A DNA stretch of 64,000 nucleotides from Candidatus Nomurabacteria bacterium (lineage in GTDB: Bacteria > Patescibacteriota > Minisyncoccia > Phycocordibacterales > UBA9973): contig JAIOPO010000005.1 in assembly GCA_021413905.1 (NCBI GenBank), forward strand, positions 2,027-66,026, in the 5' to 3' direction. Shown in pieces: positions 4,539 through 59,892 of the stretch. Both the position numbers and the translations under genes were made by a program. Within the stretch, counting starts at the first letter, position 1; every line of letters begins with the position of its first letter. Below the pieces are notes generated by a model. It did no database searches, was not told the DNA's origin, and was given only the letters and a program-made list of their open reading frames with translations.

Positions 4539-4614
4539 GCCGCTTTAGCTCAGTTGGTAGAGCAACGCTTTTGTAAAGCGAAGGTCCTCGGTTCGAGTCC
4601 GAGAAGCGGCTCCA
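4539..4614 (+). tRNA. tRNA-Thr (anticodon UGU)
   Basis: The 7-bp acceptor stem is GCCGCTT/AAGCGGC, the D-arm is AGCTCAGTTGGTAGAGC, the anticodon loop is TTTGTAA, the T-arm is GGTTCGAGTCC, and CCA is encoded. Confidence 0.85.
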
Positions 4615-4653
4615 AAGTTTTCAAAATAGGTTCTGTTCAAAGCATAACTAAAA

Positions 4654-4690
4654 CGAAGGACTAGACACGAGTCCGAGAAGCGGCTCCAAA
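4654..4690 (+). other. Degenerate duplicate of the 3-prime end (T-arm plus acceptor 3-prime strand) of the adjacent tRNA-Thr
   Basis: CGAGTCCGAGAAGCGGCTCCAAA at 4668-4690 is an exact 23-nt copy of tRNA-Thr 4594-4616. An upstream CGAAGG also matches. No 5-prime half is present. Confidence 0.5.
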
Positions 4691-59507: not shown

Positions 59508-59511
59508 TTTG

Positions 59512-59596
59512 CGGAGGCGGTGAGATTCGAACTCACGGTCCGGTAAGGGACGACGGTTTAGTAAACCGTTGATTTAAACCACTCATCCACGCCTCC
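59512..59596 (-). tRNA. Type II (Ser-like) tRNA whose anticodon reads ACU
   Basis: On the minus strand the acceptor stem is GGAGGCG/CGCCTCC with G73. The D-loop has GG, the anticodon stem ACGGT/ACCGT carries loop TTACTAA (positions 34-36 = ACT), a long variable arm is present, and the T-arm is GTGAG-TTCGAAT-CTCAC. Confidence 0.7.
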
Positions 59597-59768
59597 TTCG
59601 TTTGATATCCACACCAACGTAGATAACATATATATCTTATACTCTATTTTTTTAGAGTCAAATTTATTTTTTTAAAAAATGGAAAAAATACATAAATATG
59701 CTAAAGTGTTTAATGTAAGTTGAATAAATGGAGCCGTGTGTTATTGGTTTTTAAGTTAGTATAATTAT

Positions 59769-59857
59769 GGAGCCGTGTCAGAGCGGTCTAACGTACCTCT
59801 TTGCTAAAGAGGCAGGGGCTTCAAAACCCCTCGACGGTTCGAATCCGTCCGGCTCCG
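59769..59857 (+). tRNA. tRNA-Ser (anticodon GCU), type II
   Basis: The acceptor stem is GGAGCCG/CGGCTCC with G73, the anticodon loop is TTGCTAA, a long variable arm is present, and the T-arm is GGTTCGAATCC. A TATAAT lies 4 nt upstream. Confidence 0.85.
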
Positions 59858-59892
59858 CAACAAATCGAAATCCAAATCTGCGCGAGAAATAT

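Follow-up and report, generated by a model that had tools for sequence, protein, structure and literature searches.

A conserved and probably functional tRNA-Ser(ACU) gene, with A34 in a split codon box, in a Candidatus Nomurabacteria bacterium

Textbooks and reviews exclude anticodons that begin with A from split codon boxes in all domains of life; they are reported to be universally missing, from the Ser-Arg box explicitly and in phages too, the usual argument being that A34, or the inosine made from it, would make the border between two amino acids indistinct (PMC8007984, a 2021 review). Here we describe a gene for tRNA-Ser(ACU) that stands beside a tRNA-Ser(GCU) for the same codon box in a 64,000-nucleotide stretch, hereafter the window, of contig JAIOPO010000005.1 (positions 2,027 to 66,026; assembly GCA_021413905.1, Candidatus Nomurabacteria bacterium). 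Our analysis, which works from sequence, indicates that the gene encodes a serine isoacceptor with an anticodon thought excluded, and that it is real, conserved and probably functional.

The closest described systems each share part of this arrangement. The only widespread bacterial A34/I34 tRNA is tRNA-Arg(ACG), which TadA edits within the loop U33-A34-C35-G36-A37. The ACU gene has in common with it a gene-encoded A34, the run U33-A34-C35 and A37, and differs in carrying U36 in place of G36 (U33-A34-C35-U36-A37, thus not the TadA substrate loop), in being type II and in serving a split Ser/Arg box where I34 would misread AGA. Its A34 lies outside the Arg CGN box, as does that of tRNAs which read four-codon boxes with unmodified A34, such as Mycoplasma tRNA-Thr(AGU). 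Allo-tRNAs, known from metagenomes, combine serine identity with unusual cloverleaves and non-serine anticodons; the ACU gene resembles them in its serine identity and unexpected anticodon but has normal 7/5 acceptor/T-stem geometry and an anticodon for a serine codon. Extra A34 tRNAs, Leu-AAG and Thr-AGU, occur in Leuconostocaceae (PMC8007984); these, like the Mycoplasma tRNA, serve family boxes in which loose reading is harmless, whereas tRNA-Ser(ACU) serves half of a split box. Compared with canonical bacterial tRNA-Ser(GCU), it shares the type II form, long variable arm, G73, the pairs G1-C72, G2-C71 and A3-U70, U33, A37-A38 and the codon box, and differs in having A34 instead of G34 and in belonging to a separate paralogue lineage, 58-79% identical to the GCU gene of its own genome. 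A partial search of the literature found no description of tRNA-Ser(ACU) in bacteria or phages and no functional study of the phage-encoded form, and a survey of virus tRNAs lists no anticodons in its text (PMC6409571); any tRNA-finding program would detect the gene, which may have been noticed earlier.

Read 5' to 3', the ACU gene is GGAGGCG UG GAUG AGUGGUUUA AAUC A ACGGU UUACUAA ACCGU C GUCCCUUACCGGAC C GUGAG UUCGAAU CUCAC CGCCUCC G. The predicted cloverleaf has a 7-bp acceptor stem, a 3-bp D-stem, a 5-bp anticodon stem, a 5-bp T-stem with the T-loop UUCGAAU, and a long variable arm of 4 bp (GUCC/GGAC); in homologues, each of the five variable-arm pairs has undergone compensatory change. In the 7-nt anticodon loop, UUACUAA, U33 is followed by A34, C35 and U36 at window positions 59562, 59561 and 59560. 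G73 is the discriminator, the gene does not encode CCA, and the rest of the serine identity set (G2-C71, A3-U70, a 3-bp D-stem and a long D-loop) is present, with the D-arm in register with those of the window's other serine tRNAs. ARAGORN recognizes four tRNA genes across the window and calls the two under study tRNA-Ser(act) at 59511-59596 (-) and tRNA-Ser(gct) at 59769-59858 (+), and both match Rfam RF00005 from end to end, at 57.4 and 43.1 bits, respectively. These programs bear out a first-pass annotation of the window, which had noticed a type II Ser-like tRNA with G73 and anticodon ACU, and the Rfam score gives no sign of a pseudogene. Judged by its predicted fold, the gene has every structural feature of a bacterial type II tRNA-Ser and lacks only the G34 that defines the GCU isoacceptor.

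The same annotation had raised the possibility of a pseudogene or of a sequencing error at a single G/A position. There are grounds for suspecting that sequencing or assembly erred, or that a spare tRNA-Ser(GCU) was recently inactivated by mutation: split-box A34 is reported as universally missing (PMC8007984), and the spacer and anticodon region rest on one assembly, the Logan contigs of run SRR15633504 breaking inside both tRNAs. Those contigs (L001 and L002; L numbers are our labels for contigs and loci) carry both flanking genes and end inside the ACU and GCU genes, near window positions 59537 and 59785, probably because several co-occurring genomes of the Candidate Phyla Radiation (CPR) in one sample have near-identical tRNAs. 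The recurrence of the gene speaks strongly against an error. We searched with a pattern consisting of a generic long-arm tRNA, the loop YUACUAA, a T-loop and a few D-loop invariants, which matches once in the window and never in shuffled windows. It returned more than 120 matches in JGI metagenomes and more than 120 in IMG/VR; a complete tRNA-Ser(act) was called by ARAGORN at 117 of the 120 JGI loci listed, and a full tRNA-Ser(ACU) is present at all 120 listed for IMG/VR, that is, on 237 independent contigs for the 240 loci together. Clustered at 88% identity, 236 of these genes form 125 clusters. The window gene is 91-95% identical to ACU genes of other genomes, and those of L083, L031, L120, L063 and L065, from other samples, have the same anticodon and backbone and depart from it only by compensatory variable-arm changes (GUCC/GGAC, GUUCC/GGAAC, GAACC/GGUUC). 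Four of these five have a divergent tRNA-Ser(GCU) 69-97 nt away; no GCU gene was found beside that of L065.

Covariation points the same way. Across 36 CPR-like ACU members, stem positions are paired in 98.7% of cases, as against 33-58% with slid partners, and double, compensatory changes occur in 19 of the 25 stem pairs; the observed covariation score was reached by none of 500 shuffles. G1-C72, G2-C71, A3-U70 and G73 are invariant in the same sequences. Such pairing and covariation is the signature expected of a working tRNA with serine identity, not of an error or a pseudogene. The window gene itself has a perfect cloverleaf with a score above that of its GCU neighbour, to which it is only 64% identical. 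We therefore consider an error or a spoiled spare copy to be scarcely credible, and the ACU gene to be very probably functional.

Relatives were also sampled blind to the anticodon, through four RecG homologues (79-86% identical to the RecG of L031) on long Paceibacteria contigs with 10-kb flanks. Three of the four loci carry a divergent GCU/ACU pair just upstream of recG, all with A34, which answers the question, raised in the first-pass annotation, of whether relatives have this tRNA; the fourth has no serine tRNA within the 10-kb flanks. RecG is also encoded a few kb from the tRNA pair in L031, L063 and the window, the last as seen in L002. The adjacent P-type ATPase was uninformative for synteny: a scan of genome contigs gave nothing nearer than 35% identity, and homologues from the protein database, 62-69% identical, lack both synteny and neighbouring tRNA genes.

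The first-pass annotation had left open whether the ACU gene was a G34-to-A variant or a paralogue of the GCU gene. At 31 loci with both genes, identity between the ACU gene and its GCU partner is 58-79%, and the best-matching ACU gene from another locus reaches 78-100%. Because all 31 ACU genes are nearer to an ACU gene of another genome than to any GCU gene (the converse holds for 29 of the 31 GCU genes), our data support an ancient paralogue family and not a recent G34-to-A change. The P-type ATPase of the window is 100% identical to an NCBI protein named Candidatus Nomurabacteria bacterium and its next relatives carry names such as Patescibacteria, Peribacteria and Woesebacteria, so the host of the window is a CPR (Patescibacteria) bacterium, Candidatus Nomurabacteria. 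L022, a contig of 905 kb that bears the ACU gene, encodes a primase named Candidatus Woesebacteria, with close homologues named Collierbacteria or Microgenomates. Since the window ATPase belongs to Nomurabacteria and the L022 primase to Woesebacteria, the ACU family, by these protein assignments, spans at least the CPR classes Paceibacteria and Microgenomatia. Loci that bear the tRNA pair encode RecG, DnaG, FtsW, SecDF, enolase and SMC, and these cellular housekeeping genes identify them as chromosomes rather than mobile elements.

The gene is not confined to cellular genomes: numerous uncultivated phages also have one. Many pattern matches fall in dense tRNA arrays, for instance one with 19 tRNAs and a tmRNA (L037), and some array loci encode phage-family proteins. 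A BLAST search of GenBank phages with the window tRNA gave only tRNA-Ser(UGA) genes in the three matches checked. A phage ACU gene used as query matched one group of jumbo phages (Salmonella 7t3, Munch, SE_PL and PHA46; Erwinia Hallingskeid; Klebsiella fENko-Kae01), and among cultured phages the anticodon ACT was confirmed in Salmonella jumbo phage 7t3 only (MK773491, 329274-329364). The 7t3 gene, annotated simply as tRNA-Ser, shares the anticodon and type II shape of the window gene and differs in its loop, CUACUAA, and in its discriminator, A. In 7t3 and the array loci examined, phage ACU genes lack a GCU partner, whereas CPR genes are usually GCU-paired; a GCU gene accompanies the ACU pattern at 1 of the 120 IMG/VR loci listed. 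We considered whether ACU is the dominant phage tRNA for AGY codons and rejected this: among 120 IMG/VR loci taken as a control through tRNA-Asn(GUU), 18 have Ser(GCU) and 3 have Ser(ACU). By these counts, Ser(ACU) in phages is a recurrent minority form.

This occurrence in phages bears on the idea that the ACU tRNA is mainly non-decoding, serving either to escape nucleases aimed at G34 or other serine tRNAs or as a serine donor for the cell envelope, so that the anticodon would be a means of evasion or incidental. It has been proposed that changes in the anticodon loop allow phage tRNAs to escape anticodon nucleases (PMC10264068), arrays of phage tRNAs commonly include Ser(ACU), and one array locus encodes a repair protein of the RNA ligase/polynucleotide kinase type. 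The CPR gene, however, has housekeeping genes around it and a GCU gene as its partner, and its vertical conservation extends over two classes, all of which looks like core translation; its anticodon fits an abundant codon that means serine, and no nuclease aimed at tRNA-Ser(GCU) was identified in this analysis. A mainly non-decoding role is therefore unlikely in our view.

Several features of the phage-like contigs are worth recording in their own right. The repair-type protein just mentioned, of 759 residues, is encoded at 6882-9161 of L020, a phage-like array with Ser(act); it matches phrog_8238, annotated as RNA ligase, with E = 5.6e-199, and matches polynucleotide kinase and phosphatase families more weakly, which suggests a tRNA-repair enzyme. 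L075, a 1.85-kb metagenome contig with a dense tRNA array, holds Ser(act), Arg(acg), tRNA-Ile(aat) and tRNA-Tyr(ata) according to ARAGORN, the last two being further A34 split-box anticodons on a single phage-like contig. The tRNA-Asn-anchored control contains one Cys(aca) call and two Tyr(ata) calls.

How might such a tRNA read its codons? The window contains 218 AGT and 53 AGC codons, and AGA is its commonest arginine codon (278 of 747). In the P-type ATPase, AGT stands at the invariant serine columns 184, 204 and 566, AGC at the near-invariant serine column 280 and AGA at the invariant arginine column 432; on this evidence reassignment of AGA or AGY was rejected and AGN keeps its standard meaning. 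We propose that the ACU gene is transcribed from its own promoter and processed, CCA being added after transcription, and that seryl-tRNA synthetase would charge the product, recognizing it by its long variable arm, by G73 and by the pairs G1-C72, G2-C71 and A3-U70, elements that are present and invariant. A34 would be left unmodified, since the group appears to be without the TadA/I34 system, as judged from tRNA-Arg(GCG) in relatives and from the literature, and would form a Watson-Crick pair with the third base of AGU, a codon that outnumbers AGC fourfold here. AGC would be left to the GCU isoacceptor, which could also read AGU by wobble. We put the probability that the ACU gene is a functional serine isoacceptor with an unmodified A34 that decodes AGU at about 65%.

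A competing possibility, also raised in the first-pass annotation, is that a TadA-like enzyme deaminates A34 to inosine, the resulting ICU anticodon reading AGU, AGC and, weakly, AGA. The loop keeps the U33-A34-C35-N-A37 of the TadA-edited tRNA-Arg(ACG) and differs at position 36, phage arrays with Ser(ACU) often also hold Arg(ACG), and Ser(ACU) occurs in cultured jumbo phages of Salmonella, a genus that has TadA. Against this, position 36 is U and not G, and ICU would gain nothing over GCU for AGY codons while placing serine at AGA, the main arginine codon and the one found at an invariant arginine column. Among CPR loci that bear the GCU/ACU pair, tRNA-Arg(GCG) is present at five and tRNA-Arg(ACG) at none, in agreement with a report that CPR bacteria appear to be without tRNA-Arg(ACG) and do not use inosine wobble (PMC8629427). 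The window, which is part of a genome, has no arginine tRNA, and no deaminase domain was found in 8 of its 10 open reading frames of 130-198 residues, examined together with two longer ones of 199-285 residues. Because related loci use tRNA-Arg(GCG) and AGA is the main arginine codon, which I34 would read as serine, editing is probably absent, and we regard the inosine explanation as improbable.

Decoding by an unmodified A34 fits these data better, but several observations weigh against it. Unmodified A34 can read beyond U in family boxes, as in Mycoplasma and mitochondria, which would carry a risk of serine being inserted at AGR codons. GC-richer loci in which AGC outnumbers AGT keep the ACU gene (L026, L085, L090, L100 and L116). 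The other split boxes in the same loci are almost all served by G34, for example 69 G34 against 0 A34 for Asn, so that the restriction of A34 to the serine AGY box is left unexplained by the mechanism proposed here. The presence of Ser(ACU) in Salmonella jumbo phages means that the absence of TadA cannot be the whole story. Finally, the search pattern fixed the loop as YUACUAA and the scans were blind to G34 orthologues, only the three RecG-anchored pairs having been sampled without this bias. A speculative reason for the exception at AGY is that a Watson-Crick reader of U may out-compete a poorly modified tRNA-Arg(UCU) at AGU where an organism has few enzymes for tRNA modification.

A broader proposal, on which we are evenly divided, is that Ser(ACU) is a translationally active split-box A34 isoacceptor that was fixed before the split of Paceibacteria and Microgenomatia, has been kept beside GCU and occurs in many phages as well, cultured jumbo phages of enterobacteria among them. 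If this is true, the exclusion of A34 from split boxes is not a universal constraint on decoding, and the serine AGY box would have a particular need of a Watson-Crick reader of U. The gene offers a natural test case for the behaviour of an unmodified A34 in a split box, and helps to ask whether the exclusion of A34 elsewhere depends on TadA and why AGY alone is excepted. There are practical consequences too: annotation pipelines label such genes only as tRNA-Ser, as in the 7t3 record, and CPR and phage genomes will be wrongly modelled by codon-adaptation indices or code-inference tools in which AGY is taken to be decoded by G34 alone.

Two further observations concern decoding in this group. 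A tRNA-Ile(tat) gene lies just downstream of recG in all four RecG-anchored Paceibacteria loci (L264-L267); this anticodon is generally lost in prokaryotes (PMC8007984), and its presence suggests that AUA is read without lysidine in these bacteria. In the window, the 54 long genes have no TGA stop (47 TAA, 7 TAG) and no in-frame TGA in about 19,700 codons, while 53 out-of-frame shadow reading frames end in TGA. Low-GC relatives resemble the window in this respect and GC-richer relatives stop at TGA, so reassignment of UGA is not supported as the cause, and compositional avoidance of TGA seems more likely than recoding.

The GCU neighbour, described as canonical in the first-pass annotation, turns out to have a peculiar D-arm. 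In alignment with other serine tRNAs its D-stem consists of U10.U25, C11-G24 and A12.C23, two of three pairs being non-Watson-Crick, and Rfam flags the mismatches; the D-stem of the ACU gene is regular by comparison. The same D-arm, GUGUCAGAG(U/C)GGUCUAACGUA, is kept in at least ten related genomes whose other stems differ (L031, L066, L068, L081, L082, L083, L120, L131, L137 and L264-L266). This conservation led us to reject the view of the window gene as a decaying copy, and we read the arm as a conserved, weakened D-arm of a bacterial tRNA-Ser.

The two tRNA genes lie in a densely coding window of about 32% G+C, among type IV pilus genes and genes for the P-type ATPase, a malic enzyme, a ZIP transporter and a two-component system (histidine kinase and response regulator). 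They had been described as converging about 170 bp apart on opposite strands. The distance stands, the AT-rich spacer being 172 nt, but the genes diverge, with their 5' ends at 59596 and 59769 facing each other. Putative promoters occupy both sides of the spacer (Table 1). On the ACU side, the corresponding part of the spacer in relatives contains an extended -10 motif, TGnTATACT or TGnTATATT, and on the GCU side the motif ATGGAAAAA...TATGnTA(A/G)AGT is found again in the spacers of L031, L066, L081, L083, L138, L264, L265 and L266. Since promoter-like motifs are kept on both sides, the two genes appear to be transcribed separately, each from its own promoter-like site.

Table 1. Positions in the window of the two serine tRNA genes and of elements in and between them.
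Feature	Position	Strand	Basis
tRNA-Ser(ACU)	59512..59596	-	ARAGORN; Rfam RF00005 57.4 bits; covariation in 36 homologues
Anticodon A34-C35-U36 ('agt' on + strand)	59560..59562	-	sequence; ARAGORN anticodon at tRNA position 35, own count
Putative promoter of the ACU tRNA: TTGACT, 16 nt, TAAGAT	59634..59661	-	consensus scan; leader would be ~30 nt
Putative promoter of the GCU tRNA: TGGAAA, 16 nt, TAAAGT; TG at 59699-59700 = extended -10	59680..59707	+	motif kept in relatives
Upstream copy: ATG + first 10 nt of tRNA-Ser(GCU), in the 5' leader	59728..59739	+	exact 12-nt direct repeat
Second 12-mer copy, across the true 5' end of tRNA-Ser(GCU)	59767..59778	+	exact 12-nt direct repeat
tRNA-Ser(GCU), type II, G73, loop UUGCUAA, weak D-stem	59769..59857	+	ARAGORN; Rfam 43.1 bits

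The leader of the GCU gene contains a further irregularity, seen already in the first-pass annotation: the first 10 nt of the tRNA are repeated, with a preceding ATG, 39 nt upstream. The repeat is an exact 12-mer, ATGGAGCCGTGT, with 27 nt between the two copies. For a 12-mer with six or more G/C that recurs within 100 nt, the expected number per window is 0.025, and one was seen in 2% of Markov simulations. An integration or duplication scar had been suggested. An att-type scar of a mobile element, or alternatively a leader element that competes for the acceptor stem and modulates processing, would be in keeping with an exact repeat so improbable by chance. It would also be in keeping with the predicted fold of the precursor, in which the 3' acceptor strand is bound by the upstream copy instead of the true 5' strand, an alternative pairing that might affect processing. 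RNase P would remove the duplicated leader from the GCU precursor. Integrases, on the other hand, normally duplicate the 3' ends of tRNAs, and no integrase or transposase was found among the neighbouring genes tested. In nine relatives with the same GCU-side promoter motif, moreover, the distance from the -10 element to the tRNA is 10-33 nt, as against about 60 nt in the window, and the 12-mer repeat is absent from their leaders. The extra stretch in the window amounts to one 39-nt unit, the leader plus GGAGCCGTGT, and the sequences upstream of the two copies are loosely similar (GTT..TAAGTT..ATAA..ATGGAGCCGTGT). Because this loose similarity is what a decayed duplication would leave, and because the relatives lack the repeat, a local 39-nt tandem duplication of the leader and first 10 nt of the tRNA, private to the window genome, fits better; of the earlier suggestion, duplication is retained and integration is not. 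We consider a mobile-element scar or a regulatory leader element rather doubtful, even with the two similar duplications described next counted in its favour.

The ACU-GCU spacer of L137 contains an independent and longer pseudo 5' half of tRNA-Ser(GCU), GGAGCCGTGTCAGAGTG ... CTAACGTACCTCTTTGCCAAAG, which is split after G18 by an insert of about 118 nt with a hairpin of its own. Elsewhere in the window, the last 21 nt of tRNA-Thr(UGU) (4539-4614) together with AAA are repeated exactly 74 nt downstream, as the 23 nt CGAGTCCGAGAAGCGGCTCCAAA at 4594-4616 and 4668-4690, and a hairpin and T-run follow; this repeat resembles a scar of the att type at the 3' end of a tRNA. Given the pseudo half in L137 and the repeated 3' end of tRNA-Thr, small duplications at tRNA ends seem to be common in this lineage.

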